A stretch of DNA of 64,000 nucleotides from NCBI GenBank assembly GCA_964187785.1, contig OZ076409.1, positions 26,042,001-26,106,000 of the forward strand, written 5' to 3'. How positions within the stretch are numbered: the stretch's first letter is position 1; every line of letters starts with the position of its first letter. This document shows positions 12,262-50,500 of this stretch, in pieces. Below the pieces are notes generated by a model that saw nothing but the letters and a program-made list of their open reading frames with translations, searched no databases and was not told where the DNA came from. The position numbers and the translations under genes are program-made. This DNA comes from Amphiscolops sp. MND2022. Taxonomy: Eukaryota.

Positions 12262-12461
12262 NNNNNNNNNNNNNNNNNNNNNNNNNNNNNNNNNNNNNNN
12301 NNNNNNNNNNNNNNNNNNNNNNNNNNNNNNNNNNNNNNNNNNNNNNNNNNNNNNNNNNNNNNNNNNNNNNNNNNNNNNNNNNNNNNNNNNNNNNNNNNNN
12401 NNNNNNNNNNNNNNNNNNNNNNNNNNNNNNNNNNNNNNNNNNNNNNNNNNNNNNNNNNNNN
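12262..12461. other. Assembly gap (200 N)
   Basis: Run of N. Confidence 1.
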
Positions 12462-30744: not shown

Positions 30745-31178
30745 GTTAGTCATCAGTTTCTTGATATAGTATGATGCAATATTTTTGAATGAACCTTCGA
30801 TTCGCTTTAAAGGTCACTGTTGCATAATACTATTTATCTTACATTCTTTTTGTTTTATGGATTCCTCCAAGCAACATTCACTCATGAAGTACATTCCCTT
30901 AGCATCAATTTTGATTATTTCATGATGCTCACCCTAAATCATATCGTATCAAAATGACTGCAAAACTTGATGAGATGGAAGATAACTTATCGACTGTAGT
31001 ACTTTTTGGGTGGAATGGAACATTATCGGAATTTAAAAATCATGAAAATCTTCAGTATTCACATCAAATTTGAATAAAAGCGCCTCAATAAGTGTTTAAC
31101 AGTCATTTCATCGCTTGCAGTTTTCTGAAAAGTTTTTCTTGATTACACTATTCGTTATAACATTTCCTTTTTTCTCAG

Positions 31179-31606
31179 GTGTGGTAGTAACGGTTGCCAT
31201 GAGCACTTTGTACATCATGTTGGGAGACTTCAACGAACTAGTGGACTACTTCAGCTTCGCAGCCTGGGTCTTCTACTTCATCACAGTGCTGGGTCTGATC
31301 AGACTGCGCTGGACTATGGCTGACGTCAAGAGGGAGTTCAAAGTGCCCATAGTCATCCCCATCCTCTTCTGCATATGTGCCCTGTACCTCATTGTGGCCC
31401 CACTCATCGCGGAATTCGACCCTAAGTACATCATGGCGGTGCTCTTCATCCTGTTCGGCTTCGTCTACTACCTGCCCTTCGTTCAGTGTGGGGTCAAGGT
31501 CAAGTTCATGTACCCCTTGTTCACCTACATCCAGTACGCACTCAACATCGCCACTTCATATTACCACGAAGAGGAGGAGAATGAACAGGATCAAACAGCA
31601 GATAAG
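31179..31606 (+). CDS. SLC7/LAT transporter, exon 5 (3' end uncertain: donor GTTAAT at 31607 or read-through to 31786)
   Basis: LVDYFSFAAWVFY..GLIRLRWT....REFKVPIVIP; hydrophobic TM11-12. Confidence 0.85.
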
Positions 31607-31735
31607 GTTAATCCCTTCCATGTCACTAGTTTGGGTTTGACATGCAGTCAACTCCGTATTTTGCATCCGGATAATTCGGATCTTCGTTTAAATTGCATGT
31701 ATCCGAGCCCCTATTTCGAGACGACCAAAGAAATA

Positions 31736-31910
31736 CAGTGGATCCCGGATATAAGAAACCCTCTTATAAAAAATACCCGCTTATAGTCAATGCGTATCTT
31801 GGCCCCGATAGCCAATTTAATTTCTTTTGAAAACCCGCTTTTAAGAAAGTTCGATTATAAGAAACACCACTAGTCATTCCCGTGACGTTGATTATATCCG
31901 GGATTCACTG
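31736..31910. mobile_element. Tc1/mariner (pogo-like) MITE
   Basis: TA|CAGTGGATCCCGGATATAA ... TTATATCCGGGATTCACTG|TA. Confidence 0.8.
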
Positions 31911-33164
31911 TATCATCTGGTTAGTTCGTATTTTCTCATTATTCGTACTATTTTATTCGGTCCCTAGCTATAAGAATTGATGGATTCAAATATTAGCATG
32001 ATTCTTGTGAGCAAAATTGTCCATTCAATGTCAAGTATTCGTCAGTTAAAACATGCAGTTGCAAAGTCTTGTTCCTTCGAAAACTCTTGAACCTTGTGTT
32101 AGATTTTGAGTGACCATTTCAGTCCAAATTGATAAAACGTAATACTTGTAAATTGAAGTTGAGTTTGGCTGATTTTGCTCACAAAATGCTAAGTCAGTTC
32201 AAGTAGTTTTCACATCTTGTTTATTGGAGTCAAACTGAAATTACGGCAATTGTATAGGTTTTTGTACTCTTCACCGTTTAGTGGCAATTCTCCAGAAGAA
32301 TGCCTGATCAACCTCTCTTGTGCTCACGAAGAAGCTGTTGTGAAGTGTTGACACTTGTTTTGAATTTCAGAGTTTAGAAGCGAACACTGCCACTGCTTGT
32401 TGAGAGAGGTCTCCCATTTCATCTTACAATGTCAATCAGAATCAACGTTTCGAGATTTTTGCAACTAGAAGAAACCAGATACCTCAATTATGTACAATTT
32501 CCTTCGTATCTACTAATTTTCCTTCGTCGTAACCTTTGTATGCATTTGACGCTTTGTTCAATGTTGCTCGTAAAGTGTGAATTCATCATTATTCGGGTGA
32601 TCATTATACTTTTTCTCAAGCTCAAGAATTTTAAATTGTCGAGAAAAGTGATAAGATGGCCCTAGGACTAAGTAGACATTAAAACTCCCTTAAAAAACTC
32701 CTTAGGAGTAGTAATGGAGTATGTTGAGGTGATGACCTAAAAGAACATAGATGAATGCCCGAGATGTAAACAGATCATTGAACTATAAATTAGCAAAGCA
32801 GGCGTGAAAACTTATTGACCTGTTGATGAGTAAACTTTGCTAATAAACACGTGCTTCCTGTAACTATTTAATTGTCCTGTCAAGTATTTGTTTGTAATTA
32901 TCATCGACCAGAGTTGAGATGAATTCATTACCCCGGATTTGTGATTCTAATATTCAGTTGACTATTAACTAATCTCTGTTTTCATCACGCTACGCGAAAT
33001 ACTGCGCGATAGACTAAATCCTGATCGTAACAGGTTATGTTGCCCAGAGTGAATTGAACAGAGACAACTCTCGTACAAAAGCGCGCTCATCTCAATCAAC
33101 TGCCGATTGAAAAATTGTTTTCAACAGAAAGAAGCCTCTATAAAGAACGTTTTCCTGTGTCGAA

Positions 33165-33234
33165 ATGGACAGTGCAGCAATGAAATGGCTGTTTCTCTGG
33201 AAAACAAGAAGATTTTGCAACATGGAGTACCAGG
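33165..33234 (+). pseudogene. Copia gag N-terminus, split by the Maverick insertion
   Basis: FSGKQEDFATWSTR continues in frame as FIAYIQTKNL at 47573 once the element and one TSD copy are removed. Confidence 0.85.
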
Positions 33235-33286
33235 AGTAGTTTGATTTTATATACCCTTGTTAGAAATAGGGGGGGTTTAGTTTTAC

Positions 33287-33388
33287 AAAAATTTCCATTT
33301 CTAGCAAAGACTATGAGTCCCTCCCGGGACTCGAACCTCGCCGGTTGAAATGATGGCCGAGCACACTAACCACTCGGCCATCGGGAGG
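33287..33388 (-). ncRNA. Putative Pol III tRNA-like hairpin RNA (left arm copy)
   Basis: Reverse complement of 47414-47515. Confidence 0.5.
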
Positions 33389-34746
33389 CGGAATACTGTA
33401 ATATCAACACGCTTATTACAGAATGTATTCTCCCGCTAGCTGAGCGGTGAGTTAATTCAGCTCGCACAACAACTAATTGCATATTCAAAGATTTCGTAAT
33501 CTTATATTCGTATCATTTGTGTCGTAACAAAATCGTATCATATACAAATTGGATCTGGCTACAATTTGGATCTGGGCACTAATCGTGCACAGATCAGAAT
33601 AGTTTTTGACTATTTTGATGTCAGGCGAACAAATTTATGCTAGTGCTATGATAAATAACTCAAGGAAAGGTAGGCAAATAAAACGTGAAAGGCCAGCGGT
33701 CTTGTTTTAACCCCCAGTGTGGGTTCCCAGTTATATCCGCCCTCCTCCATAAAGAAGTAATTCGGCTGATCTGCTCCTTTTGTTTAAGAAATTGATCGTT
33801 TTCGGAGCCTAGACACACGCTTTTCTAATTCGCCGGCAGGATAAATTTATTCCGTAATTGTTACACTTGCTGTTTGTTTGTGAAAGTTGATTATGTAATA
33901 GCGGAAAACATTTAATGAAGATTGGGGAATAATCTCTTTTAATTCACTGACTGCGCTTCATGATACTTATATTTAATATGCGTGCAATTATTGCCCTAGC
34001 CAAATCCAGCCACTTTCCCAGATCTACAGCTTTGGGTGGTCTCTAAACATGAAGGTATTCTCCCCTTATTGAGACAATTTATCTCACTTGCGAATCACAA
34101 CATGCGCATTGTAAGTGAATGGGAATCGTTCAATCGACCCCTTCCTGAATTTAACCCCCCCCCCCCTCATTTGCGATGGCAAAACAAAACAAAAAGGTGA
34201 AAATGTTTTGTTCTTGCAAATATCTAGGTAAAACTACCAATGCAGTATGGCTCACATTTGCTTTTATCTTCCATTCTGTCTGGGATGGAATAATCAAAAC
34301 TTCTTTACAGCTCAGTAAAATAGTTAACAAAACAGTTCAAAATGAAAAGTAAACATTTGATAATTTCTTTTGTCAAGTTTCTTTTCTTTCATGCATCATT
34401 TTTGTTTGGATTTGATTTAACTGCAAAAGTTGGCAAGATTTTGTTTGCCTCGACAGTGACAGTCTAGTCTCAAGTCAGAAACACCAGTTGTTGCAAATCT
34501 TAACTTTCTTCATCTCCATTTTTCCTTACTGAATCAAATTTTATTGTTTTACTTGTCGAGTCTCGGTAACAAATCTGAAAGTCAGCTAGAACAATCACAT
34601 CTAGGCCTTCGAAATTGAAAATTTTTGCACAAGACGGTCCTCTGCAACTTTTGAGCTATCTTTTTGTTCTCCCTTTTGTCTCGCGTTTTTGTTCTCTATC
34701 TGTTCTTGCGTTTTTGTTCTCCCTTTTCTCTTGCCGATTAAACCCT

Positions 34747-35283
34747 ATGGATTATCTGAGAAGTTTATGGGACCTGGATCAGTCAAGAGTTGGCTTCTAC
34801 GAGTATGGGGAACCTGCTGCATTACTGCCTCCACCACCCAAGAAGCATGAAGTCGCCGAAGAATTGAAGGTCGAAATCTTGAAAACAACGTCGTTGAGAG
34901 ACGAATACCAAAGATCTGGCAAACAAAGAGTACGCCACAGAGCTTTTGTACTTGCTACCGATGGAAAGGGAAAAGTAGGCATCGGTATAAAGGTCAACCG
35001 AGTACAGAAAATAGCCATCGAAAAAGCAACTGATCAAGCCAAATCCGAGATGTTTGAAATTGCTCTCGGAAACTTTGACCCAGAAAAAGAAGAAAAACAC
35101 ACTTTATCTCAACAAGTTCATGGGCAGTACGACAAACTTGAAGTCATTCTAATTCCTGCTGCAACGGGTGCTGGACTGGAAGGTTCCGCAATTGTTCAAT
35201 TTATCCTCCGACTTATCGGAGTCAAGGACTGTATTGTTAAGCCCGAATCTAGTAAGTTTTCTGCTTTTCATCTCTTACTTTAA
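34747..35283 (+). CDS. Divergent ribosomal protein uS5 (RPS2)-like ORF, left arm; possible intron 35252-35345 and short exon to 35377
   Basis: LKVEILK...RVRHRAFVLATDGKGKVGIGIK...AIEKA...AK...HTL....G....V.LIPAATGAGL.....ILRLIGVKDC matches uS5 N- and C-domain patterns by eye. Confidence 0.8.
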   Translation: MDYLRSLWDLDQSRVGFYEYGEPAALLPPPPKKHEVAEELKVEILKTTSLRDEYQRSGKQRVRHRAFVLATDGKGKVGIGIKVNRVQKIAIEKATDQAKSEMFEIALGNFDPEKEEKHTLSQQVHGQYDKLEVILIPAATGAGLEGSAIVQFILRLIGVKDCIVKPESSKFSAFHLLL

Positions 35284-35804
35284 ACGGCCATCAATCCTGC
35301 ACTCACCGGAAGGAATCATCAAATTTTCTACTAATAACATTTCAGTGAATTCACAAATGGGGTTGATTACTGCTTGATTTCTGCTCTTCTTTTTCGAATG
35401 ACTATGAGTTTTTTTTTGTTCTTTGCAGCTCATGGAAATAACACGATAACAATGGCGTTGGCTGTTCTGAATGCACTTGGAAAACAATTCAACAAATAAT
35501 CGTGAGTTTTTATCTTTTGACTAGGCTTATTTGTCAAGATTTGTTTAACTGTCCCAACACACGAGTGATCAGCAGCGTAAACCCGAGACGTTTTTTGCGG
35601 TGCTTTCAACGTTCAAAACAATCGGTGTTTACGTTGTTGACAACTCCCCAACCCTCATTTTTGAAAGTTGAATAATGTTATTAGGCTTAAACTTCTACAG
35701 GTGTTTTGTATGATATTAGTATTTTCCCAATACGGTCTATCTGCAAATTCCTCTTATACAACCTTTTGTAACTTAGTAGTTTTGTATTTTCTTATCGAAC
35801 TGTC

Positions 35805-36805
35805 GGCATTAAAGCCCAATATTTTGCTTTTATAGCCAATCATTTTCTATTCTACGGTTATGGGGCTGCATTTAGGCCTGCGGGGGCGGCCTTGAAGTCC
35901 AATATTTTGCTTTTATAGCCAAGCCTTTTCCATTCTACGGCCGTGGGGCCGCGATTAGGCCTACGGGGGCGGCCTTGAAGCCCAGTATTTTGCTTTTATA
36001 GCCAAGCCTTTTCCGTTTTACGGTTATGGGGCCGCGATCAGGCCTACGGGGGCGGCATTAAAGCCCAATATTTTGCTTTTATAGCCAATCATTTTCTATT
36101 CTACGGCTGTGGGGCCGCAATTAGGCCTGCGGGGTGGAATTAAAGCCCAGTATTTTGCTTTTTCTACCAGGTATTTTTCATTTTACTGCTATGGGGCCGC
36201 AATAAGGCCTGCAGGGGCGGCATTAAAGCCCAATATTTTGCATTTACAGAGCAGCAATTTTCATTCTACGGTTATGGGGCCGCATTTAGGCCTGCGGGGC
36301 GGCATTAAAGCCCAGTATTTTGCTTTTTGAGCCAAGCATTTTTCATTTTACGCTTATGGGGCCGCAATAAGGCCTGCGGGGGTGGCTTTTATGCCCAATA
36401 TTTTGCTTTTATAGCCAAGCTTTTTCCAATCTACGGCTGTGGGCCGCATTTAGGCCTGCGGGGGCGGCATTGAAGCCCAATATTTTGCTTTTTAAGCCTA
36501 GCAATTTCCATTTTACGGTTATGGGGCCGCAATGAGGCCTGCGGGGGCGGCATTAAAGCCCAATATTTTGCTTTTTAAGCCAAGCATTTTTCTTTCTACG
36601 GTTATGGGGCCGCGATTAGGCCTGCGGGGGCGGCATTAAAGCCCAGTATTTTGCTTTTTAGGCCTAGCAATTTCCATTTTACGGTTATGGGGCCGCGATA
36701 AGGCCTGCGGGGGCAGCGTTTAAGCCCAGTATTTTGCTTTTATAGCAAAGTTATTTCCATTTAACGGCCGTGGTCGCGTTTATGCCTGCGAGGGAGGCCT
36801 TCAAG
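35805..36805. repeat. Satellite of ~12 x 82-83 bp units (left arm)
   Basis: gccca(a/g)tattttgc recurs at 82-83-bp spacing from 35820 to 36730. Confidence 0.95.
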
Positions 36806-37059
36806 GCCTTCAATCTGCTTTTTTCAATCATCTATCGATTCGTTTTTCATTTGGAAAATTACATTCTACATCTTTTGGAGAATAATCTCTGCTATTAGAC
36901 AACGCGTCGGCCAATAAAATGAGAGCAAAACAACACTGAATTTACAAATAGCTAACAGCTCAAAAGTACTTGAAAGCCTATTCAACAACTACTTGAGAAC
37001 AATACAAAGTAAAACAATGAAAACAGCACACATCTATGTAATGCAATTTTGCTCGAGTT

Positions 37060-37937
37060 TTATTCGCTGTCGCTCACAATCTCCATCCGTCTCCTTTTCG
37101 CTCTTTTTATCCTGTTCACAAACTCGTCATCGCTGAACCAATTGTCAAAATCAATTAGGTATTCCAAGTCTTCTATGGCGTTTGCCTCGTCTTCTGTCAG
37201 TGTCTCGACAATTACGCAGTCGTTAGGGTCTGACTCTTCGTCATCTTCGTGTGCAGTTTCACCTGTATCTGATGCTTCCACTGCCTCATCGTCAATGAAG
37301 GGATTTCTCGGAGGACTTCGCTCCTCAACAGATTCGTCCATGTTACTGAATTGGTCTTCCAGCTCGGAATCACTGTACTCTCTTTGGTGCATGCCTGGAT
37401 CGGGAGGCGACCATGCTTCCATTAACTGTTGAGTTAAAGAGACTGGCCCATCATCACTGACTCGAACTCGCAATGGTGATGACAGAGGGGCATTTGCCAG
37501 CATCGGAGCTTCATCTGGGAATATTTGGCTGATTGTGACTTGCGGATCATTGCCGTTCAATTCGTCCCATGTGGGACTTGATGGTATCTCTTCCTCTTCA
37601 TATCCCCATTCTGGTTCATCCACAATGTCTTGCTCAACATGAACATCTCTGATCATGTAGTGACCATGGGGTAAAGTTGAGATGCCGTCTTCTAATACAT
37701 AACGCTTGTCATCAAAGGAGCTGAGAGACACCTTGTTCGTCTTGATTGTTTGTAATTGGTGCTTTTGCGAGCCTATTCGCATGTTTACAGTCTTGTAGGA
37801 CTCCCCAGTTTTCAATACTTTTTTGTACAGCTCATGATTCAGTTCCTTCTGAGCGAATCGGCAAACTCCCTTTGCCGACAGCTTCTGCCTTCCTCCAACC
37901 ATGATTGAATACATTTTGGGTTTTAGTCCGACAAATT
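37060..37937 (-). pseudogene. Inverted duplicate of the PolB 3' end (part of the left arm)
   Basis: Near-identical to 42861-43738; begins mid-gene at FVGLKPKMYS. Confidence 0.9.
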
Positions 37938-38131
37938 TTATTCCTTACATTAGTGAACAAGAACTATTACGATTTGTAAAACATTTCATTTAATGCTGTC
38001 TTGTCTAATTGAGTTTTATCCTTTAAGCTTTTTTTTCGAAAACAAAGAGCACAAGAATGAATTATTCAAGTAAAAATTTTAAAAAAAAACATCATGGAAT
38101 CAACAAAGCTGCAAGACAAAACAAAAACAAA

Positions 38132-38509
38132 TTAAATGGTTTGAAAGTTCATTATATACACGGGCTCGCCATCCATAGCCCCCGGCTTCCAACAGTCATC
38201 TTCCTCCTCTAGCGTTACCACGGATGTGTAGGACCAGCCATTTGGCTCGATCGTTGTGTAGAAGGAGGAGAAACTAACTTTTTGGAGTCCTTTCCGTTGC
38301 GCGGGCATGCTCTTGAAGGACGATTTTTCTGGCTGGGGTTGTACTTTCGTAGAGGTTGATGGTGATGGTTCGAGCGGGGTCAAAGCCGGAAACACTCGTA
38401 TATAACAGCTGAATGTGACTGTTTTCCTCAGCGGGGGTCCAAAATTGGAAACCAGCTCGTCGTCGATTTTAAGGCAGGATCGGATTGGCATAGCAGTTGA
38501 ATCATACAT
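38132..38509 (-). CDS. 125-aa Maverick accessory ORF, divergent from PolB, with two RVxF-like motifs
   Basis: ATG-initiated ORF; RSCLK...RKTVTF and KSSFK...QKVSF. Confidence 0.55.
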   Translation of the reverse strand: MYDSTAMPIRSCLKIDDELVSNFGPPLRKTVTFSCYIRVFPALTPLEPSPSTSTKVQPQPEKSSFKSMPAQRKGLQKVSFSSFYTTIEPNGWSYTSVVTLEEEDDCWKPGAMDGEPVYIMNFQTI

Positions 38510-38799
38510 TTTTCAAGACGAGCAATAGGTGATTACTGAGGAAAGCCAGGAAAAGAATTCGAAAAGACTTTAATGTGATTTTAAAGCAAACTGATGATTT
38601 GCAAAATAGTTGAGTGAGCGAAAAGCAAAAAGTTGAAATCAAATAGCTGTTGATATTGATATCAGGCAAAAAGCAAATGATTTTGGGCTGTGGCCAGACA
38701 AGTCAGGCGGCGGCGAGCAACAGCTTGCATTTTTACGAGAGAGTGCTGAGAAAAATTAAACAACAACTCACTTTCTAGGGGAAATTTAACTGCGTAGCG

Positions 38800-39030
38800 T
38801 GTCTAGAGGGGAGGTGTTTCAACAGTTGCGCTTTCTTATCTTGCCGGTTCAAACAAATTCAACCGCCGATTGTCTGGGAGGGGGTGCGTCAGCTTGTCTC
38901 TATATTGCCGGTTCAAACGAGATTAACCGCCGGTTGTCTGAGAGGGGGTGCGTCAGCTTACAATTTTTTTTAAACCGGACAAAACGAGATTGAACGGCGA
39001 TTGTCTAAGTGGGGTGCGTCAGCTTGCGTC
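38800..39030. promoter_or_regulatory. Three to four imperfect ~65-70-bp repeats between the divergent ORFs (candidate bidirectional promoter)
   Basis: ttgtct..ggggtgcgtcagctt occurs three times and ttgccggttcaaac twice. Confidence 0.4.
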
Positions 39031-39337
39031 TGTCGTCGAACCCGAATAACCCCCGATAGCTCAATTTTAAAACGAAATTTCTCAAAAATAAAATCAAAAA
39101 TCTCCAACTTTGTTGCAAATCAGTTACCCTCACAAGCAAAAATTGTTGAAAACTAGATATTCTCACCTGCAATATTTGATTGAAAATACTATTTCAGATT
39201 GAAACTCAAATTCAAAAATCAAATCAAACAGTTAAAGAAACCGAATTCACTTTTTAAAAAACACTTTCTGAGCCCCTTGGGGTATTTCATTCAACAATCT
39301 GATATGGTAGTTTCAATCAAGTATCTATTCAGTCGAA

Positions 39338-42300
39338 ATGAGAACTTGTGACGTTTGCCAAAAATCGTTTGGAAACAAAAATTTACTTCGTCATCATCGG
39401 CGAAATGTTCACAAAATTCCTGCTTATCTCTTTCCCATGGAATGCAATGTTTGCCACAGGATGGAGCTATCTGTCGCACTAATTGATCAACACTTTCGAG
39501 AAAAACATGGAACACAACTGGACAAAATGTGTGTTTATTGCGGAGTTGGGTTCGATATACCTGAACACTTTTACAAACACTTGGAAGAGAAACACGAACT
39601 TCCACCACCTGCTGAATCAACCAAAGAGAAAACGAACCCAATATCATCAGCTTTTGACGGGGCGCTCAAAGTGTACAAAATTGAGGGATCAGGAGAAAAT
39701 GACTTGATGCAGTTCATGACTGACATCAAACCACAAATTGATCAACTGGTTAGCGAAAATGTAAACCGCACTGCCCGTAAACTGCAGCTAATTTTGAAAG
39801 TTGAGCTTTCACAACCAACAAAAGACGAGGAAACTCAAGTCTTTCTTCGCTCAAACATGGTGCCAGTGTATGGTACTAGTCTACCGCAAGACGATTTCCT
39901 CAGTGCAGTGGACCAGTTACTAAACACTTTGTTTACGTTCACAGCTTCTGGAAGTGGATGGATCTTGGAGAAAATTGTCGATCTGGATGTCAAGTTTGCA
40001 ACATTTAGCCCCATTCGAGGATCTTCCTACTTGCCTACTCCGCCCGAACTGGACGCATCGCACTTGCTACTAAACATACGAAACCGTCAAGATCACAATT
40101 GCTTCTTGTATTGTTTCACAGCCGCGTGGCACCTGAAGCACGGACCATTACTCTATGTCGCTGGTCGAGACTCATTAGCAAAGAGAACTAGCCCAGACAC
40201 TTATTCGCGACGCAACCCATTAGCTCATCAAGCTGAAGGCGAGTTTGAAATGCCAATGGGCTTCGGTCAGATGCTTCGATTCGAAAAATTGAATGATTGC
40301 AAAATCAACGTGTTTAGATACACTGAAAATCAACTGGTTCCCCTGCGAGTAACTCGAGAAAAAGGAGATGGCCTAGAAATTGACCTGTTGCTGGTGGATG
40401 ATGGACAAGAGTATCACTATATTCTGATACTTGACTTTTTGAGACTAGTTTCTATGGTGAAAGGAACCACAACACTGTATCAGAGAGTCCTCTGTAAAAA
40501 TTGTTTCCACATTTGCATGAATGAAAACACATACAGACGGCATCAAATCAGTTGCTTGCAACATGAACCAGCAGTAGTCAAAATGCCAACGCCTGAGAAA
40601 AACAAACTGAAGTTCGCGAATTTGGGTGCCCGGTGGTTCGCACCAGTTGTCATATATTTCGATCTGGAATCAATTATCAAACCAGTTGCAGGATGTCAGA
40701 ATGCAAAACAGCAAACAAGTATCACAGAAATTCATCAACCCAGTGGATTCTGCCTTATTGGAATTGAGCATGGGAATCCTAATCCCGTTTTCATGCAACT
40801 AGAGCGCTCTGAAAACTGCATGGAAAAGTTTGTAGGGGCACTTGAAAAGATTGCACAGGAAATGTATCAAAAGAAGCAAAGCAACCGGTACTTTCGAGAC
40901 TCAGTACCCGAAAGGCCTCAAGAAGCCCAACTTTGTTGGATATGCGAAGGTCAATTCGGAATAGTCAGAGACATCGAGGACGACAAGGTTATTGACCACT
41001 GTCATTACTCAGGAAAGTTTTTGGGATTCGCGCATCCGGAATGCAATCTCAAAAGAAAGACAGTCAATTTCATACCAGTCATGGCCCACAATCTGTCGAA
41101 TTACGACCTTCATCACGTGTGCTTATACATTCACAAGTTCAAACCCGGTTGCAAAGTAGACGTGATACCGAATACTGATGAGAAATACATTACCTTGACG
41201 ATCAGAGTACCTGTGAGGAGCTATCTAGACAAAAACGGACTAACAAAAACAGTGTTTGAGTACTTGCGTTTCATTGACTCGTTCAGGTTTATGGCTTCTT
41301 CACTCGAAAAACTTGCAAGCTATCTGCCAAAAGACAAGTTCAAGATACTGGACAGTTGCTTCGCTGACTATTCGGAATCAGACCGAGACCTTTTGCATCA
41401 AAAAGGGTACTACCCTTATTCGTATTTTGATAGTTTTGACAAGTTTCAAGAAGAAGAGCTCCCGCCAAGATATCAATGGACGGACTCACTGCGCAACAAA
41501 GCGATCATGTTGACTCAAGATGAATGGGAACACACAAAGAAGGTTTATGAACGATTCGCTTGCGCAAATTTGGGTGATTATCACGACCTATATCTTAAAA
41601 CTGACACTCTAATATTAGCATGTGTGGTTGAAGAATTTCGGAGCCTATGCTACACTACCTATGGCCTAGACAGCGCCCATTACTTCACCTGCTCGCATTT
41701 GTCTGGAGACGCCTTCTTGAAAAAATGTCGGGCAGACATTGAGCTTCTAACAGATCGCGAGCACCTAGAGATGGTGGAAAATATGATTAGAGGTGGTGTT
41801 GCATCTGTTTTTGACAAGAGGTTCTTCAAAGCGAACAACAGGTACGTGGCCGAGCATAACTATAATGACTACAACACTTACGGAGTGTTATTAGACGCAA
41901 ACAACTTGTATGGGGGTGTTATGGAAAAGTTACCACTGCCATTGAATAGCTTCGAAACAGTTCAAAACATTGATCTCAACAAAATCTTGGAAACAACTAA
42001 CGACTCTGAAGAAGGATACATTCTAGAAGTAGACTTGCATTACCCCGACAAACTTCATGACGGACATCAAGATTTTCCGCTAGCTCCAACAAAAGAGCGA
42101 ATATACTACAAAAGCCTTGGAGAGAAGCAGCAAGAGCTTCTAGAAATAATGGGTGAAACTAGACCTTATAGTCAGGGGACGAAGTTGATTCAGTCACTGT
42201 CAAACAAAAGCAACTACACTGTCCATTATATAACACTGAAGCTCTACGTTAGCCTTGGCATGGAAGTGAAGAAAGTACATCGAGTGTTGAAGTTCAAACA

Positions 42301-43738
42301 AACAAAATGGTTGAAACCATACATGGAGCTAAATACCGCAAAGAGAAAAGAATCTCGAAACAAGTTCGAAGAGAGTTTCTTCAAATTAATGAATAACTCA
42401 TGCTACGGAAAAACGCTCGAGAGCAAGCGAAACCGCCTCACTGTTCAGTTAATAAGCAACCGAGAAAGTCTTTTGAGGAGAACAGACACCCCGTTCTTTT
42501 GTGAGTTTAAAATCTTCAATGAAAATCTTGCAGCTATTTCGTCAAGGAAAAGATCCATCTTGTGGAACAAACCAACAATAGTCGGAGCATCTGTTTTAGA
42601 CTTGGCCAAATTCCACATGTTCAATTTCCACTATAATGTAATGAAAAAGCACCTGAACTGCTTCGTGTTATATTCTGACACAGATTCTCTGTTGTATGAG
42701 ATTAAATACACAGACTTTTATGAAGAGCTAGCAACCAATGATGAGCTCCGCCAGCACTTTGACCTCTCCAATTACCCTAAAGAACATCACCTCTATAACG
42801 CTGATAATAAAATGGTCACACTCAAGTTCAAGGATGAACTCGGAGGAGAGCCAATCGAAGAATTTGTCGGACTAAAACCCAAAATGTATTCAATCATGGT
42901 TGGAGGAAGGCAGAAGCTGTCGGCAAAGGGAGTTTGCCGATTCGCTCAGAAGGAACTGAATCATGAGCTGTACAAAAAAGTATTGAAAACTGGGGAGTCC
43001 TACAAGACTGTAAACATGCGAATAGGCTCGCAAAAGCACCAATTACAAACAATCAAGACGAACAAGGTGTCTCTCAGCTCCTTTGATGACAAGCGTTATG
43101 TATTAGAAGACGGCATCTCAACTTTACCCCATGGTCACTACATGATCAGAGATGTTCATGTTGAGCAAGACATTGTGGATGAACCAGAATGGGGATATGA
43201 AGAGGAAGAGATACCATCAAGTCCCACATGGGACGAATTGAACGGCAATGATCCGCAAGTCACAATCAGCCAAATATTCCCAGATGAAGCTCCGATGCTG
43301 GCAAATGCCCCTCTGTCATCACCATTGCGAGTTCAAGTCAGTGATGATGGGCCAGTCTCTTTAACTCAACAGTTAATGGAAGCATGGTCGCCTCCCGATC
43401 CAGGCATGCACCAAAGAGAGTACAGTGATTCCGAGCTGGAAGACCAATTCAGTAACATGGACGAATCTGTTGAGGAGCGAAGTCCTCCGAGAAATCCCTT
43501 CATTGACGATGAGGCAGTGGAAGCATCAGATACAGGTGAAACTGCACACGAAGATGACGAAGAGTCAGACCCTAACGACTGCGTAATTGTCGAGACACTG
43601 ACAGAAGACGAGGCAAACGCCATAGAAGACTTGGAATACCTAATTGATTTTGACAATTGGTTCAGCGATGACGAGTTTGTGAACAGGATAAAAAGAGCGA
43701 AAAGGAGACGGATGGAGATTGTGAGCGACAGCGAATAA
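39338..43738 (+). CDS. polB: Protein-primed family B DNA polymerase (Maverick pPolB), 1466 aa, intact
   Basis: Three N-terminal C2H2 fingers; GSGW; OTU-like DHNCFLYC..HY; ExoI FDLES; EndoVII/HNH CWIC..DHCH.SG..G.AH..CN; ExoII HNLSNYD; KGYYPY; ExoIII YLKTD; motif A LDANNLYG; motif B KLMNNSCYGK; motif C YSDTDS; KMY; AKGV; DDKRY; acidic tail. Confidence 0.96.
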   Translation: MRTCDVCQKSFGNKNLLRHHRRNVHKIPAYLFPMECNVCHRMELSVALIDQHFREKHGTQLDKMCVYCGVGFDIPEHFYKHLEEKHELPPPAESTKEKTNPISSAFDGALKVYKIEGSGENDLMQFMTDIKPQIDQLVSENVNRTARKLQLILKVELSQPTKDEETQVFLRSNMVPVYGTSLPQDDFLSAVDQLLNTLFTFTASGSGWILEKIVDLDVKFATFSPIRGSSYLPTPPELDASHLLLNIRNRQDHNCFLYCFTAAWHLKHGPLLYVAGRDSLAKRTSPDTYSRRNPLAHQAEGEFEMPMGFGQMLRFEKLNDCKINVFRYTENQLVPLRVTREKGDGLEIDLLLVDDGQEYHYILILDFLRLVSMVKGTTTLYQRVLCKNCFHICMNENTYRRHQISCLQHEPAVVKMPTPEKNKLKFANLGARWFAPVVIYFDLESIIKPVAGCQNAKQQTSITEIHQPSGFCLIGIEHGNPNPVFMQLERSENCMEKFVGALEKIAQEMYQKKQSNRYFRDSVPERPQEAQLCWICEGQFGIVRDIEDDKVIDHCHYSGKFLGFAHPECNLKRKTVNFIPVMAHNLSNYDLHHVCLYIHKFKPGCKVDVIPNTDEKYITLTIRVPVRSYLDKNGLTKTVFEYLRFIDSFRFMASSLEKLASYLPKDKFKILDSCFADYSESDRDLLHQKGYYPYSYFDSFDKFQEEELPPRYQWTDSLRNKAIMLTQDEWEHTKKVYERFACANLGDYHDLYLKTDTLILACVVEEFRSLCYTTYGLDSAHYFTCSHLSGDAFLKKCRADIELLTDREHLEMVENMIRGGVASVFDKRFFKANNRYVAEHNYNDYNTYGVLLDANNLYGGVMEKLPLPLNSFETVQNIDLNKILETTNDSEEGYILEVDLHYPDKLHDGHQDFPLAPTKERIYYKSLGEKQQELLEIMGETRPYSQGTKLIQSLSNKSNYTVHYITLKLYVSLGMEVKKVHRVLKFKQTKWLKPYMELNTAKRKESRNKFEESFFKLMNNSCYGKTLESKRNRLTVQLISNRESLLRRTDTPFFCEFKIFNENLAAISSRKRSILWNKPTIVGASVLDLAKFHMFNFHYNVMKKHLNCFVLYSDTDSLLYEIKYTDFYEELATNDELRQHFDLSNYPKEHHLYNADNKMVTLKFKDELGGEPIEEFVGLKPKMYSIMVGGRQKLSAKGVCRFAQKELNHELYKKVLKTGESYKTVNMRIGSQKHQLQTIKTNKVSLSSFDDKRYVLEDGISTLPHGHYMIRDVHVEQDIVDEPEWGYEEEEIPSSPTWDELNGNDPQVTISQIFPDEAPMLANAPLSSPLRVQVSDDGPVSLTQQLMEAWSPPDPGMHQREYSDSELEDQFSNMDESVEERSPPRNPFIDDEAVEASDTGETAHEDDEESDPNDCVIVETLTEDEANAIEDLEYLIDFDNWFSDDEFVNRIKRAKRRRMEIVSDSE

Positions 43739-43994
43739 AACTCGAGCAAAAATTCTTTTTGCATTACATAGATGTGTGCTGTTTTCATTGTTTTGCTTTG
43801 TATTGTTCTCAAGTAGTTGTTGAATAGGCTTTCAAGTACTTTTGAGCTGTTAGCTATTTGTAAATTCAGTGTTGTTTTGCTCTCATTTTATTGGCCGACG
43901 CGTTGTCTAATAGCAGAGATTATTCTCCAAAAGATGTAGAATGTAATTTTCCAAATGAAAAACGAATCGATAGATGATTGAAAAAAGCAGATTG

Positions 43995-45001
43995 AAGGCC
44001 TTGAAGGCCTCCCTCGCAGGCATAAACGCGACCACGGCCGTTAAATGGAAATAACTTTGCTATAAAAGCAAAATACTGGGCTTAAACGCTGCCCCCGCAG
44101 GCCTTATCGCGGCCCCATAACCGTAAAATGGAAATTGCTAGGCCTAAAAAGCAAAATACTGGGCTTTAATGCCGCCCCCGCAGGCCTAATCGCGGCCCCA
44201 TAACCGTAGAAAGAAAAATGCTTGGCTTAAAAAGCAAAATATTGGGCTTTAATGCCGCCCCCGCAGGCCTCATTGCGGCCCCATAACCGTAAAATGGAAA
44301 TTGCTAGGCTTAAAAAGCAAAATATTGGGCTTCAATGCCGCCCCCGCAGGCCTAAATGCGGCCCACAGCCGTAGATTGGAAAAAGCTTGGCTATAAAAGC
44401 AAAATATTGGGCATAAAAGCCACCCCCGCAGGCCTTATTGCGGCCCCATAAGCGTAAAATTAAAAATGCTTGGCTCAAAAAGCAAAATACTGGGCTTTAA
44501 TGCCGCCCCGCAGGCCTAAATGCGGCCCCATAACCGTAGAATGAAAATTGCTGCTCTGTAAATGCAAAATATTGGGCTTTAATGCCGCCCCTGCAGGCCT
44601 TATTGCGGCCCCATAGCAGTAAAATGAAAAATACTTGGTAGAAAAAGCAAAATACTGGGCTTTAATTCCACCCCGCAGGCCTAATTGCGGCCCCACAGCC
44701 GTAGAATAGAAAATGATTGGCTATAAAAGCAAAATATTGGGCTTTAATGCCGCCCCCGTAGGCCTGATCGCGGCCCCATAACCGTAAAACGGAAAAGGCT
44801 TGGCTATAAAAGCAAAATATTGGGCTTCAAGGCCGCCCCCGTAGGCCTAATCGCGGCCCCACGGCCGTAGAATGGAAAAGGCTTGGCTATAAAAGCAAAA
44901 TATTGGGCTTCAAGGCCGCCCCCGCAGGCCTAAATGCAGCCCCATAACCGTAGAATAGAAAATGATTGGCTATAAAAGCAAAATATTGGGCTTTAATGCC
45001 G
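43995..45001. repeat. Satellite of ~12 x 83 bp (right arm, inverted)
   Basis: Reverse complement of 35805-36805. Confidence 0.95.
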
Positions 45002-45520
45002 ACAGTTCGATAAGAAAATACAAAACTACTAAGTTACAAAAGGTTGTATAAGAGGAATTTGCAGATAGACCGTATTGGGAAAATACTAATATCATACAAA
45101 ACACCTGTAGAAGTCTAAGCCTAATAACATTATTCAACTTTCAAAAATGAGGGTTGGGGAGTTGTCAACAACGTAAACACCGATTGTTTTGAACGTTGAA
45201 AGCACCGCAAAAAACGTCTCGGGTTTACGCTGCTGATCACTCGTGTGTTGGGACAGTTAAACAAATCTTGACAAATAAGCCTAGTCAAAAGATAAAAACT
45301 CACGATTATTTGTTGAATTGTTTTCCAAGTGCATTCAGAACAGCCAACGCCATTGTTATCGTGTTATTTCCATGAGCTGCAAAGAACAAAAAAAACTCAT
45401 AGTCATTCGAAAAAGAAGAGCAGAAATCAAGCAGTAATCAACCCCATTTGTGAATTTACTGAAATGTTATTAGTAGAAAATTTGATGATTCCTTCCGGTG
45501 AGTGCAGGATTGATGGCCGT

Positions 45521-46057
45521 TTAAAGTAAGAGATGAAAAGCAGAAAACTTACTAGATTCGGGCTTAACAATACAGTCCTTGACTCCGATAAGTCGGAGGA
45601 TAAATTGAACAATTGCGGAACCTTCCAGTCCAGCACCCGTTGCAGCAGGAATTAGAATGACTTCAAGTTTGTCGTACTGCCCATGAACTTGTTGAGATAA
45701 AGTGTGTTTTTCTTCTTTTTCTGGGTCAAAGTTTCCGAGAGCAATTTCAAACATCTCGGATTTGGCTTGATCAGTTGCTTTTTCGATGGCTATTTTCTGT
45801 ACTCGGTTGACCTTTATACCGATGCCTACTTTTCCCTTTCCATCGGTAGCAAGTACAAAAGCTCTGTGGCGTACTCTTTGTTTGCCAGATCTTTGGTATT
45901 CGTCTCTCAACGACGTTGTTTTCAAGATTTCGACCTTCAATTCTTCGGCGACTTCATGCTTCTTGGGTGGTGGAGGCAGTAATGCAGCAGGTTCCCCATA
46001 CTCGTAGAAGCCAACTCTTGACTGATCCAGGTCCCATAAACTTCTCAGATAATCCAT
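45521..46057 (-). CDS. uS5 (RPS2)-like ORF, right arm copy
   Basis: Translation identical to the left-arm copy. Confidence 0.8.
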   Translation of the reverse strand: MDYLRSLWDLDQSRVGFYEYGEPAALLPPPPKKHEVAEELKVEILKTTSLRDEYQRSGKQRVRHRAFVLATDGKGKVGIGIKVNRVQKIAIEKATDQAKSEMFEIALGNFDPEKEEKHTLSQQVHGQYDKLEVILIPAATGAGLEGSAIVQFILRLIGVKDCIVKPESSKFSAFHLLL

Positions 46058-47413
46058 AGGGTTTAATCGGCAAGAGAAAAGGGAGAACAAAAACGCAAGA
46101 ACAGATAGAGAACAAAAACGCGAGACAAAAGGGAGAACAAAAAGATAGCTCAAAAGTTGCAGAGGACCGTCTTGTGCAAAAATTTTCAATTTCGAAGGCC
46201 TAGATGTGATTGTTCTAGCTGACTTTCAGATTTGTTACCGAGACTCGACAAGTAAAACAATAAAATTTGATTCAGTAAGGAAAAATGGAGATGAAGAAAG
46301 TTAAGATTTGCAACAACTGGTGTTTCTGACTTGAGACTAGACTGTCACTGTCGAGGCAAACAAAATCTTGCCAACTTTTGCAGTTAAATCAAATCCAAAC
46401 AAAAATGATGCATGAAAGAAAAGAAACTTGACAAAAGAAATTATCAAATGTTTACTTTTCATTTTGAACTGTTTTGTTAACTATTTTACTGAGCTGTAAA
46501 GAAGTTTTGATTATTCCATCCCAGACAGAATGGAAGATAAAAGCAAATGTGAGCCATACTGCATTGGTAGTTTTACCTAGATATTTGCAAGAACAAAACA
46601 TTTTCACCTTTTTGTTTTGTTTTGCCATCGCAAATGAGGGGGGGGGGTTTAAATTCAGGAAGGGGTCGATTGAACGATTCCCATTCACTTACAATGCGCA
46701 TGTTGTGATTCGCAAGTGAGATAAATTGTCTCAATAAGGGGAGAATACCTTCATGTTTAGAGACCACCCAAAGCTGTAGATCTGGGAAAGTGGCTGGATT
46801 TGGCTAGGGCAATAATTGCACGCATATTAAATATAAGTTTCATGAAGCGCAGTCAGTGAATTAAAAGAGATTATTCCCCAATCTTCATTAAATGTTTTCC
46901 GCTATTACATAATCAACTTTCACAAACAAACAGCAAGTGTAACAATTACGGAATAAATTTATCCTGCCGGCGAATTAGAAAAGCGTGTGTCTAGGCTCCG
47001 AAAACGATCAATTTCTTAACAAAAGGAGCAGATCAGCCGAATTACTTCTTTATGGAGGAGGGCGGATATAACTGGGAGCCCACACTGGGGGTTAAAACAA
47101 GACCGCTGGCCTTTCACGTTTTATTTGCCTACCTTTCCTTGAGTTATTTATCATAGCACTAGCATAAATTTGTTCGCCTGACATCAAAATAGTCAAAAAC
47201 TATTCTGATCTGTGCACGATTAGTGCCCAGATCCAAATTGTAGCCAGATCCAATTTGTATATGATACGATTTTGTTACGACACAAATGATACGAATATAA
47301 GATTACGAAATCTTTGAATATGCAATTAGTTGTTGTGCGAGCTGAATTAACTCACCGCTCAGCTAGCGGGAGAATACATTCTGTAATAAGCGTGTTGATA
47401 TTACAGTATTCCG

Positions 47414-47515
47414 CCTCCCGATGGCCGAGTGGTTAGTGTGCTCGGCCATCATTTCAACCGGCGAGGTTCGAGTCCCGGGAGGGACTCATAGTCTTTGCTA
47501 GAAATGGAAATTTTT
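47414..47515 (+). ncRNA. Putative Pol III tRNA-like hairpin RNA (right arm copy)
   Basis: A box TGGCCGAGTGG (47422-32), B box GGTTCGAGTCC (47465-75), T5 at 47511-15; stems CCTCCCG/CGGGAGG and GATGGCCGAG/CTCGGCCATC. Confidence 0.5.
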
Positions 47516-47572
47516 GTAAAACTAAACCCCCCTATTTCTAACAAGGGTATATAAAATCAAACTACTACCAGG

Positions 47573-50500
47573 TTCATCGCTTATATTCAAACGAAAAATC
47601 TTTTCGAAACACTGGCTGGCACAGCAGTGGAACCCGTTGAACCCGCAGCTTTGGGAGACGCTCCGACGAATGAGCAGAGAGAAGGTCATAGAGTTGCAAC
47701 AGAGGAGTTTGAAAACAATAAGAAGAAATTCCGAAATGACAAAAACACACTGTGGTGCATGCTGGCTCTGACACTTGATTCGACAAGTCTAATGCTGATA
47801 CGACATGATTGTGTTGGAAAAGATGGCCTTGGTGACGGAACCAGAGCATGGAATCTTTTGAAGGAAAGATTCAGAAGTGAAGAATCACCAACAGTTGTGG
47901 CTCTTGTATCTCAAATTGCCAGAATGCGACTGAAACCAGACGAGGCACTGCACGAGTATTTCATCAGAGCACAAGAATTGATGACAAGGCTGAGTGGTGC
48001 AGGTGAACGCATTTCGGAGACGATATTCATGGCGTTGGTTCTCAATGGACTTCCTGAGAGATTCGAGAATTTTATGGTGCAGGAAAGTTTCAACCCATCC
48101 GCCAACTTCACTGAGTTGAGATCGAGATTGACAAACTTCGAGGAAAGCCGCAAGCAACGCAATGGCGAAGAAGAGCAGCAAAATCAGCATGTGGCAATGC
48201 CGTCATGGGGGAAGTTCGAGAAGAGTAGCAGTAAGTCAAAAAGTTTTAATTATAAAAAAAGGAAAAGGCCGAGGAAAGCAAGCGATTGAGTTGTTATTGC
48301 TGTGGTAAAGTCGGTCATATAGCCAAAAATTGTTTTTTGAGAAACAAAGCAGAATGTCGAAAATGTGGTAAAAAAGGACATTTAGACGTTACTTGTAGGA
48401 GTCAAAGTACGGAGAAAACCGCCGTACAAATGCCCAACTCTCAAAGTCTACATTCAGTTCACCTGAGTTCAGGGAGCAAAGTAGTGAGTAAGGACAAAGT
48501 TTTAATTGACTCAGGATGCACAGATCACATTCTGACAGACCGAAAATTTTTCCAAAACCTCAGAGAGATAACGTCTAGCGTAAAAAATCCGGATGGAAGT
48601 TTTTGCAAAATTGAAGGTATTGGAGACGTTGAAGTCGAACTTCGTAATGAAAATGGAAGTACAGACACGTTGATAATGAGGGATGTACTTTTCGTACCAA
48701 GTTATGAAACAAACTTAGTTTCAGTGTCAAAATTAGTCGAAAAAGGACACAGAGTCGAGTTCAGCTCGAACTGTTCGCAATTGAAAACTGAAAAAGGTGC
48801 AAACTACGGAATTGATAGAGAAGGAAGTCTTTATACTATCCAAATGAAACTAGTTGAAAAACCTTTGAGCTTTGCTACGCATGCAAAGAAAATGACTGAT
48901 TTGGAAACATGGCACAAAAGATTATGTCATGCAAATGAGCGAAGTACAAGACTCACGGTACCTAGTTTGAAGAAGTGTGAGTTCTTTTGCGAAACGTGTG
49001 CACTTAGTAAGATTCACGAGAGGCCAGTACCTCGTGAAGCAGGTTCGAAGGCTAGCAAAAAGTTAGAAAGAGTGTATACTGACATAATGGGGCCAATTGA
49101 ACCCGCAAGTATCAATGGTTATCGATATGCTATCACTTTCATTGACGAGTTCACGAAATACGCAGTTGTGAAATTCATGAAATTCAAGTCTGAGGCACTT
49201 GAAAAACTAAAGCAGTATGTAGCGGAAGAAGGCGTACCCGAAAAACTGCGTAGTGATAACGCAAAAGAATATAAAAGTCAAAGTTTTGAAAAATTTTGCG
49301 TTGAGAACAAGATAAAGCGGGAATTTACAGTTCCAGAGACACCGCAACAAAATGGAGTAGCTGAAAGATACAATAGAACGCTAGCAGAGATGACTAGATG
49401 TAACTTGATTGAAGGCAAGCTTTCTAAAATGTACTGGGTTCGGGCGATGGCAACAGCGAATTACACTTTGAATTGCATAACGAACGAGAAAACTAAAAAA
49501 TCTCCATTTGAACTGTTTTTTGGTAAAAAACCTGACTTGACAAAACTTCGGGTATTTGGATGCATAGTGTTCATGCAGAAACGAAAACAGCAACGAAGTA
49601 AACTAGAACCTAGAGGCGTCAAATGTAAGTTTTTAGGCTACGATGATTGTAGTCCATCTTACGTTGTTCAAGAGATTGACTCAGGTCAAATTCATTTTGC
49701 GAGAAATACTATCTTCAATGAGAACGAGATACCGAGCTCAGATTTCAGCGGAGACAGCGTTGTTAGGTCAGATGACGGTTCCATTATCGATATTTTTGAA
49801 AAGATTGCTGAAAAGAAGGCAAATGAAAATTCAACTAATCAAGAGAATGTTGAAACTACAAATTTGCGTACATATGCGCAAGAAGAAGAACAATCCGATG
49901 AAGTCGAAAGTCTCGTTAATGATCAAGCACTATTTGCACATGACGAAGTCAATGTGCATTGCAGTCCAGCTAAGAAAGTTTTTTTTCCACGATAGCCAAC
50001 TTCATAATAAGCGCCTTTTAGAGAAAAGCCAAAACCCCAGAGAGATTCGAACCTGCAGCCTCCCGATTGTGCGGCATAAGTGTTAACCACTGTGCCATAA
50101 GGACGTTATTGAAGGAAGTTGAACTGTTGAATATATACGCATGCGATTAAAATAATATATATACGCATATTAAAATAATCGTTGTCTTCGTCATGTGTTG
50201 CGAAGCACCGCTTCGCCTCTGTGTTGAGGTATGTAATGATGCCACCATGAGTCAAGTAGTTAAAGAAGAGACTGAAGAAAATGACAATAGAGCACAAGGT
50301 ACTTCGTACAGACCTAACCTCAATGACTGTCAAATTGTTCTCGGAGGACAAACTTTTAGATGTTTGCCCCGTGAAAAAATAGTTGATCGCTCAGAAGCGA
50401 GTGAGAAGAAAGAAAAATCACCGTTGAAAAAACTTTTGAGACGAGAATCTCGAAATAGAAGCGTACCAACTAGATATGGTACTACATACACGCATAAAAG

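Follow-up and report, generated by a model that had tools for sequence, protein, structure and literature searches.

A Maverick element with two right ends and mirror-image 4.7-kb arms in the genome of Amphiscolops sp. MND2022

Coordinates below are those of the window, the whole 64,000-nt stretch of DNA that was analysed (contig OZ076409.1, positions 26,042,001–26,106,000, assembly GCA_964187785.1, Amphiscolops sp. MND2022), and its features are collected in Table 1. The Maverick at 33235–47566, which is G000:C1:26075235-26089566 in genome coordinates, starts with AGTAGTTTG at 33235 and finishes with CAAACTACT at 47566; both the (AGT)2/(ACT)2 end motif (AGTAGT/ACTACT) and the 6-bp target-site duplication (TSD) of Maverick/Polinton elements are present. 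The perfect TSD, which like these ends had been noted from the sequence, is genuine, since the empty site exists in Copia copies (27 occurrences of the uninterrupted target site genome-wide, 0 for the control) and both flanks continue one Copia, being continuous in 6/6 copies tested (27 copies found). The LTRs of the host Copia differ at 3/312 sites.

Table 1. Features of the Maverick and its insertion site (window coordinates).
Feature	Coordinates	Strand	Basis or remark
Host Copia retrotransposon; element sits in its gag	32722..52369	+	LTRs 32722-33033, 52058-52369
Left TSD copy, ACCAGG	33229..33234		sequence, empty-site comparison
Left arm, inverted copy of parent's right-most 4.7 kb	33235..37937	-	arm alignment, sibling comparison
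Ordinary family TIR, 146 bp	33235..33380		inward of it, right-end type sequence, not left-end type
tRNA-like stretch, left, outward-pointing, approximate limits	33318..33386	-	A-box/B-box-like words, by eye
Diverged uS5/RPS2-like ORF, 178 aa, left-arm copy	34747..35283	+	PF00333 + PF03719, fold
83-bp tandem array, 11.7 copies, left arm	35804..36823		repeat search, arm alignment
Truncated inverted pPolB copy, residues 1185-1475, startless	37060..37935	-	ORF list, tblastn
Blunt junction, zero microhomology, one copy in assembly	37937..37938		sibling comparison, assembly search
Final 17 codons of parent's protease gene	37938..37993	+	sibling comparison
126-aa ORF, function unassigned	38132..38512	-	relatives (32-51%) in other Maverick families of the same genome
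64-bp repeats, upstream of pPolB	38830..38959		repeat search
pPolB, open ORF, 1466 aa	39338..43738	+	zinc-finger N-terminus, endonuclease-VII-like insert, exonuclease and polymerase motifs
Right arm, parent's own right end	42861..47566	+	arm alignment, sibling comparison
83-bp tandem array, 11.7 copies, right arm	43982..45001		repeat search, arm alignment
Diverged uS5/RPS2-like ORF, right-arm copy, identical protein	45521..46057	-	ORF list
tRNA-like stretch, right copy	47416..47484	+	long hairpin fold, z -3.9
Right TSD copy, ACCAGG	47567..47572		sequence, empty-site comparison

The two arms are 99.53% identical across 4710 alignment columns, differing by 11 substitutions, one 7-bp deletion and four 1-bp indels, and they make up 9409 of the element's 14332 bp (66%); the original prediction of ~4.70-kb arms forming two-thirds of the element, with ~4.9 kb unique (measured, 4923 bp) and a left arm that stops within an inverted PolB copy, was thus accurate. 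A TIR of 4.70 kb exceeds the ~50–1500 bp expected of an autonomous Maverick/Polinton; published lengths are 46–1,447 bp in vertebrate Mavericks and 100–1500 bp generally (PMC8097293, PMC8502044). Alignment of the outer TIRs in this subfamily revealed no base that separates left from right. The outward-pointing stretch near each end is called only tRNA-like here, and tRNA identity was not adopted, because ARAGORN at default settings made no call and Rfam gave no match; a sibling's stretch gave a weak ARAGORN call at a lowered threshold.

A search for a full-length parent, proposed along with the prediction, found siblings of 17.7–17.9 kb, and comparison with them confirms that a left half was exchanged for a copy of the right. 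The element retains 9.63 kb from the right of a 17.8-kb Maverick family, and to this is joined the family's last 4.7 kb, copied in inverted orientation; this mirror copy has taken the place of the parent's left 8 kb (integrase and virion genes), and the junction falls inside the parent's protease gene. Positions 37938–45001 are 98.7–99.2% identical to four of the siblings. The tandem array has 11.7 units in both arms, a number matched by 0/14 siblings (range 11.2–17.4), and one private substitution is common to both arms; the equal array count and the shared substitution indicate that both arms came from one template molecule. Both TIRs of sibling C3b carry one and the same private substitution, as end-to-end copying predicts.

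The pPolB reading frame is open and has the exonuclease and polymerase motifs; the protein matched atlas clusters with PF03175 and PF02945 (score 0.95–0.97, families on 19–47% of members). Sequence searches of Pfam, NCBIfam and the PDB gave no polymerase match, and a scan of viral contigs that requires short exact words found no pPolB relatives. When six proteins from the left half of a full-length sibling were used as tblastn queries, the element gave no match for the ATPase, the integrase, the minor or major capsid candidates or the 203-aa ORF, and protease residues 145–161 were the sole left-half remnant; the predicted absence of integrase, capsid, ATPase and protease therefore holds apart from these 17 protease codons. 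By analogy with adenovirus, the protease may be needed for maturing the polymerase/terminal-protein precursor. The sibling's integrase matched rve (E 4e-12), and its matches to Pox_A32 (E 1e-4) and Peptidase_C5 (E 2e-3) were both below cut-off. The parent's 442-aa ORF is a candidate double jelly-roll capsid protein with 383 homologues, two of which are named 'F54H12.2-like', a name linked to Maverick capsids; its single-sequence fold had a pLDDT of 32, and a PDB profile search gave chance matches only.

The element is not "PolB-only", as had been supposed, since it has a uS5-like ORF in each arm and a 126-aa ORF centrally. The arm ORF matches both S5 domains (PF00333 and PF03719) above cut-off and lies below the TIGR01020 equivalog cut-off (70.7 vs 181.65 bits); its model has a pLDDT of 74, and all 50 listed Foldseek matches are ribosome chains (best E 4e-13, rmsd ~2 Å). 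About 330 uS5-like loci were seen in the genome, and a Maverick polymerase precedes 18 of the 20 that were sampled. The 23 Maverick uS5 types are 19–66% identical to one another and 31–43% to the host protein, and all 23 lack the eukaryotic RGG tail and the host QTRAGQR loop. In a quick tree, where long branches may attract, they fall on one side of a branch with support 80, a tentative grouping. A homologue search returned 160 proteins, 41 of which resemble the Maverick types more than they do host uS5, as matches without genomic context or taxon, and a scan of metagenome contigs requiring short exact words found no relatives. The gene has evolved under purifying selection, and we think it very probable that this cargo is a selected Maverick gene. 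Since it is terminal in this lineage it lies inside each arm, so arm duplication doubled it, probably as an incidental effect of where the gene lies.

An independent element of the same build, with 7.5-kb arms and a perfect TSD, lies in a different Maverick family (G000:C6:69.35 Mb, C6:69345464-69365852, the C6 element); it was located through its uS5 pair, not through its polymerase. It retained the polymerase region and dropped the remaining core genes. In both cases the copy runs from right to left and the whole pPolB region is kept. Its spacer between the arms is 1.4 kb (4.9 kb at 33235–47566) and its junction has 1 bp of microhomology (0 bp at 37937/37938). The C6 arms are 1.15% apart, one of them holds a 4.45-kb later insertion, and the pPolB frame is broken; this is the older case. 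These two are the confirmed mirror-armed cases among 331 uS5-marked clusters. The 2.56-kb inverted repeats at C3:27.74 Mb (95.8%) were not counted, as no termini or TSD were found and an N gap adjoins them. A facing pair at C1:30.75/30.78 Mb is a candidate, and inspection by eye of the best 150 of 2177 pPolB candidates found no further facing pairs.

The private substitutions of the element at 33235–47566 comprise 11 that are arm-specific and 1 that is shared, which dates the duplication to the opening 15% of the private history of the lineage (95% interval 0.4–56%), or the opening 25% (0.7–73%) when the arrays are left out. Against one sibling, the C6 element has 61 arm-specific vs 5–11 shared substitutions over 4986 sites. 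Because arm-specific mutations far outnumber shared ones in both cases, the duplications date to about the time of insertion. Neither element's junctions have a second copy in the 1.07-Gb assembly; a search for copies sharing the 37937/37938 breakpoint, which had been suggested, thus found this one only. The element decayed in place after insertion, with no sign of further spread.

How did an element with two right ends arise? To our knowledge, Maverick replication has been modelled on that of adenovirus and phi29 and has never been directly watched. We consider it somewhat probable that this is a single defective Maverick made by a polymerase template switch on a free linear genome and then inserted by a helper's integrase. 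Synthesis would begin at the right origin and proceed 9.63 kb leftward as far as 37938. There the polymerase would move over to position 42861 of the displaced strand and copy back out to the right end. The product, with two functional ends, pPolB complete and a length 80% of the unit, would be put into the Copia element by a helper's integrase. Switching to the displaced strand has been seen with phi29 polymerase in vitro (PMC4176320). The element lacks an integrase, so its integration required protein in trans; the free intermediate is putative, since neither junction has a second insertion. A template switch is favoured by the composition relative to the parent, the shared template marks, the early timing and the two cases that both retained pPolB. 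Against it, the timing interval for 33235–47566 is wide, microhomology of 0 and 1 bp suits end joining equally well, spacers of 4.9 and 1.4 kb are on the large side if the switch took place directly at the fork, and confirmed cases are rare. The originally proposed switch during replication therefore gains from timing near integration and independent recurrence, while host repair and dimer deletion remain rivals.

In the former, a full-length element inserted first. A break that hit its left half shortly afterwards would have been mended within the chromosome, through pairing of the 146-bp TIRs, copying of 4.7 kb from the right arm and end joining. This likewise predicts a TSD, a single copy and a blunt junction, the timing interval extends to 56–73% of private history, and arm replacement following breaks is known from Streptomyces linear chromosomes (PMC5869714); we nonetheless find it rather unlikely, as repair could occur at any time, yet both cases date early, and it offers no reason why both retain the whole pPolB region. 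More doubtful still is a left-to-left joined dimer that integrated via its outer right ends and, as an unstable 36-kb palindrome, lost ~21 kb centrally and asymmetrically. Mouse work reportedly shows such central asymmetric deletion in long palindromes, and the sequence of events accounts for the paired right ends, the single TSD, the blunt junction and arms that were identical when inserted. But it demands two rare steps, twice over, and by eye the nine facing Maverick end pairs comprise 8 left-right, 1 right-right and 0 left-left, with no dimer in the sequence stretches examined.

An active helper-dependent, interfering or plasmid-like replicon, "still mobilised in trans" as had been supposed, appears very improbable: the open pPolB with all motifs, two intact ends and 80% of unit length fit it, but each junction is single-copy in 1.07 Gb, the arms are already 11 sites apart, the protease is gone, and the C6 element has its broken frame and its insertion. 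Long inverted repeats are a known hazard for assembly, and a fold-back read or haplotype chimera could mimic mirror arms. We regard such an artefact as extremely improbable, since each arm has its own substitutions relative to the siblings, plus the 7-bp deletion; both flanks rejoin one Copia with a TSD, there is zero N within 20 kb, and the older C6 element has diverged arms, one with a later insertion.

If the template-switch account is right, two-right-ended integrated genomes dated to insertion preserve, like fossils, a trace of strand-displacement copying and of integration in trans. Neither mirror arms nor a uS5-like cargo was found described for Mavericks in the literature searched, where accessory genes or long TIRs may still appear in supplements. 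One survey limited TIRs to ≤2.5 kb and required a 15-kb loop (PMC11131425); such limits, or a demand for several core genes, make mirror-armed elements invisible. The cargo may matter more, as a conserved, diversifying homologue at hundreds of loci whose target is testable with protein alone. A broader and doubtful proposal is that free linear Mavericks recurrently yield copy-back genomes selected for the pPolB/terminal-protein gene and packageable length, and that this lineage's swappable, terminal, fast-diversifying uS5 (RPS2) mimic acts on the host small-subunit or RNA-handling machinery; both that target and selection on copy-back forms are conjecture. If true, a core 40S protein homologue, its dose doubled by copy-back, would here be known for the first time from a lineage of small eukaryotic DNA viruses.

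Among known systems, the element resembles Maverick/Polinton (polintoviruses, adintoviruses) in its AGTAGT/ACTACT ends, 6-bp TSD, pPolB and 14-kb size, and differs in its 4.7-kb arms, its missing integrase, ATPase, capsid candidates and protease, and its added uS5-like cargo. Linear plasmids and invertrons exist as free linear DNA with terminal proteins; this element was seen as an integrated copy with a TSD, and a free linear form of it is putative. Work by Esteban (1997) and Murthy (1998) reportedly belongs to the literature on copy-back/snap-back genomes and phi29 template switching. As in copy-back/snap-back defective genomes and the phi29 template-switch products (PMC4176320), one end is copied onto the other, interior genes are gone and both origins are retained: the element derives from a parent, and the complement of one end stands where the other end was. 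Unlike copy-back genomes, which propagate repeatedly with a helper, this one sits in an animal genome, flanked by a TSD, and has a kilobase spacer; its junction occurs once, one helper integration is inferred, and helper dependence or interference is putative. The cargo is comparable to eL40 of giant viruses, which a 2024 paper presents as the first eukaryotic-virus ribosomal protein (PMC11499249), and to eS30 of FBR-MuSV and phage proteins (PMC6375957), likewise ribosomal-protein homologues in viral-type genomes under purifying selection; here, in contrast, uS5 is a core small-subunit protein and its carrier is an 18-kb element. In PMC5869714, Streptomyces linear chromosomes undergo substitution of the right arm for the left with an enlarged TIR, as here; there this happens through recombination of repeated sequences and spans hundreds of kb, whereas our case has a blunt junction in a 17.8-kb element; their linearity survives only when the terminal-protein genes are kept, and both mirror-armed Mavericks keep pPolB.

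The mirror-armed Maverick of the window is a real, single-copy element in which one arm has been replaced, and it has an independent twin on another contig, C6, of the same 1.07-Gb assembly (G000). Its arms align over 4710 columns with 99.53% identity and differ by 11 substitutions and four 1-bp indels; the left arm, which has also lost 7 bp, has as its inner end an inverted copy of residues 1185–1475 of the central ORF (1475 codons, stop to stop). The flanking sequence is Copia gag, and the uninterrupted target site occurs 27 times in the genome (22 exact; control 0); in all six copies tested from these 27, both flanks continue a single Copia element. Because the empty target occurs elsewhere and both flanks rejoin one Copia element, the target-site duplication (TSD) is a true insertion mark. 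The LTRs of the host Copia differ at 3/312 sites, which is consistent with its being older than the Maverick insertion. The original prediction of a perfect 6-bp TSD, arms of ~4.70 kb and a left arm ending within an inverted PolB copy thus describes the element correctly.

Coordinates of the Mavericks and neighbouring features (C, contigs of G000; L, stretches fetched from it)
Feature	Position	Details
Mirror-armed Maverick	window 33235–47566	AGTAGTTTG at 33235 to CAAACTACT at 47566; ACCAGG flank both sides
Its arms	window 33235–37937 and 42861–47566	
Its part colinear with the parent	window 37938–47566	right 9.63 kb of parent
tRNA-like stretch within terminal inverted repeat (TIR)	window 33318–33386 and 47416–47484	directed outward
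Amino-acid permease ORF and likely continuation	window 30132–30749 and 31100–31786	PF13520, E 4.5e-30; directly upstream of Copia element
Tandem duplication	window 24374–29770	period about 2.2 kb, 97.6% identity over 1.8 kb
N gap	window 12262–12461	200 bases, 20.8 kb left of the element
C6 element	G000:C6:69345464–69365852 (L160–L162)	TSD CATAAG, 7541-bp arm, 1433-bp spacer
C3 pair	G000:C3:27736810–27754151 (L163–L165; 27.74 Mb)	2.56-kb inverted repeats
Facing uS5-like pair	G000:C1:30749 kb / 30784 kb	35 kb apart, apparently different types
Mavericks with simple internal deletion	L146, L156, G000:C2:47037652–47049066, C12:39195466–39211824	part of pPolB gone
Tandem arrays of uS5-like modules	L149, L152; G000:C3:58.05 Mb, C12:37.27 Mb, C6:19.15 Mb	L149 and L152 without pPolB in stretch fetched
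Modular family ends	L031–L048, L090–L107	inverted repeats 58–75 bp in some copies, 146–156 bp in others; near-identical core with several different right-end modules

The right end is complete in four copies elsewhere in the genome, which span 17.7–17.9 kb between 6-bp TSDs and end in TIRs of about 146 bp, and whose left 8 kb encodes a 203-aa ORF, an rve integrase (E 4e-12), proteins resembling the A32 ATPase (E 1e-4) and the adenain protease (E 2e-3), and two candidate capsid proteins, so named from position, size and a homologue name that presumably ties a candidate to Maverick capsids. The window's element consists of the right 9.63 kb of this parent plus an inverted copy of its last 4.7 kb, with the break inside the protease gene, 17 codons short of its end. 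The predicted replacement of the left half by a copy of the right, and a full-length parent with integrase and candidate capsid genes, were both found; of the parental left-half genes sought in the element none is left, in agreement with the predicted lack of integrase, capsid, ATPase and protease, except that the last 17 protease codons persist. The junction is blunt; it is spanned by one of 40 scored matches (from 518 candidates), and its exact 36-base pattern has a single match genome-wide. Perfect 6-bp TSDs bound 12 of 14 delimited family copies, and of nine facing pairs of Maverick ends counted by eye eight are left–right, the window's element being the sole right–right pair. The tRNA-like stretch in the TIR, a possible Pol III unit, has 5' halves that differ between the parent's left and right ends.

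The cargo of the arms is more surprising than their replacement. The element had been called PolB-only, which is incorrect: each arm carries a 178-aa ORF in which both S5 domains exceed Pfam cut-offs and whose model (pLDDT 74) matches ribosome-structure chains (best E 4e-13). Host RPS2 accounts for two loci at 107.6 bits, the other 148 scored matches being at most 52 bits. The uS5-like gene lies at the right end in 14/14 family copies, in several interchangeable types, and when 20 further loci were selected away from the parent family's ends, 18 lay tail to tail behind a Maverick protein-primed polymerase gene (pPolB) mostly 45–87% identical to the window's, and two were tandem arrays with no pPolB within the 10 kb fetched. 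Between types, dN is about 0.22–0.48 with synonymous sites saturated or nearly so, and dN/dS is 0.14–0.15 where measurable and 0.28 for one closer pair; by these codon comparisons, the genes are under purifying selection between types. Among recent copies dN/dS scatters from 0.2 to 1.4, as expected for neutral decay with few changes. The 23 types share 31–43% identity with host uS5, whose RGG tail and QTRAGQR loop none of them has, and fall on one weakly supported tree branch. They are uS5 homologues that fail the equivalog test, and a normal ribosomal role is therefore doubtful; our guess is a putative decoy for uS5 partners or a putative RNA-binding factor. In the available text of the sources, the RpS2 binder Zfrp8/PDCD2 influences transposon transcripts in flies (PMC4726551), but such chaperones are thought to bind the N-terminal region of uS5 (PMC7736825), a region absent from the Maverick copies.

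Genome searches with the uS5-like gene, each scoring 150 of 318–366 candidates, gave at least 375 positions with at least four facing pairs no more than 60 kb apart, the window's element among them. These diverged uS5/RPS2 homologues form a large family (at least 331 clusters), a terminal accessory gene in many Maverick families of the genome. The C6 element has two right ends like the window's element but belongs to a different family (pPolB about 80% identical). Its pPolB region is entire, though the frame is now broken, and no further core gene is present; the right arm has a later 4.45-kb, reverse-transcriptase-like insertion, and the arms differ at 80/6957 sites. Its junction lies at another position and shows a 1-bp microhomology; a search tolerating up to 3 mismatches matched it at one site. 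The C3 pair, whose repeats contain a uS5-like gene, part of an integrase and the start of a minor capsid candidate, may reflect two successive arm replacements, but it has no termini and adjoins an N gap, and is not counted as a third case. Deletion derivatives are more frequent than arm replacements among these Mavericks; a 136-aa pPolB piece had 2177 first-look candidates (150 scored), a very high Maverick load.

Outside the 83-bp tandem arrays, one in each arm, private substitutions number 3 in the right arm, 3 in the left and 1 common to both (3551 sites), and the centre has 6 per 4915 sites; the four siblings have 15–25 each per 8466 sites, and the window's element is therefore the youngest of the five. 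Both arrays have 11.7 units, versus 11.2–17.4 and never 11.7 in 14 siblings; given this common count and the arm-private substitutions, the arms come from one template and have diverged since. Such mutation apart makes an assembly artefact scarcely credible as the source of the mirror arms. With 1 shared and 11 arm-specific substitutions, the duplication falls 15% of the way into the private history (95% interval 0.4–56%), or 25% (0.7–73%) without the arrays; this leans towards an origin at about the time of insertion, and a somewhat later one is also compatible. The C6 duplication was likewise early, with 61 arm-specific and 5–11 shared substitutions relative to one sibling (4986 sites).

We consider a polymerase template switch the probable origin. 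Copying would start at the right end and cover 9.63 kb, the polymerase would leave its template for the displaced strand, as phi29 polymerase does in vitro according to the available text of PMC4176320, and copying would then return 4.7 kb outward to the right end, giving a two-right-ended molecule that, because it has no integrase, would need a helper for insertion. The early date, copy direction and kept pPolB in both cases support this, as do product lengths of 80% (window) and about 93% (C6) of the 17.8-kb unit and an identical private base in both TIRs of one sibling; two cases are too few to establish the length and pPolB-retention patterns. The predicted template switch thus gains from early timing in both cases and the independence of C6, but the junctions suit end joining equally well, the spacers are long and neither product has spread. 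Host repair shortly after insertion is an unlikely alternative that would accommodate the later origins within the timing intervals (up to 56% and 73%), and an integrated head-to-head dimer with its centre deleted is less likely still. That the element is a still-mobile replicon is very improbable, since each junction occurs once and neither product has spread; the predicted continued mobilisation in trans is unsupported, the junction search for further copies having found one site only.

The available portions of published accounts give Maverick TIRs of 46–1,447 bp in vertebrates (PMC8097293) and 100–1500 bp in general (10.1101/2023.08.22.554363), and report ten C. elegans loci with pPolB and TIR and no integrase, those portions making no mention of long arms (10.1101/2024.01.15.575659). 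Among the papers listed by our literature search of openly accessible articles and preprints, none dealt with copy-back Mavericks or with Maverick-borne uS5; word searches found no uS5-like cargo in the available text of PMC8502044, PMC11071296, PMC11131425 and the C. elegans report, and no uS5 in that of PMC11499249 and PMC6375957. The window's element derives from the Maverick family without being autonomous, and its working resembles that of a copy-back genome or of an arm replacement in Streptomyces (PMC5869714).
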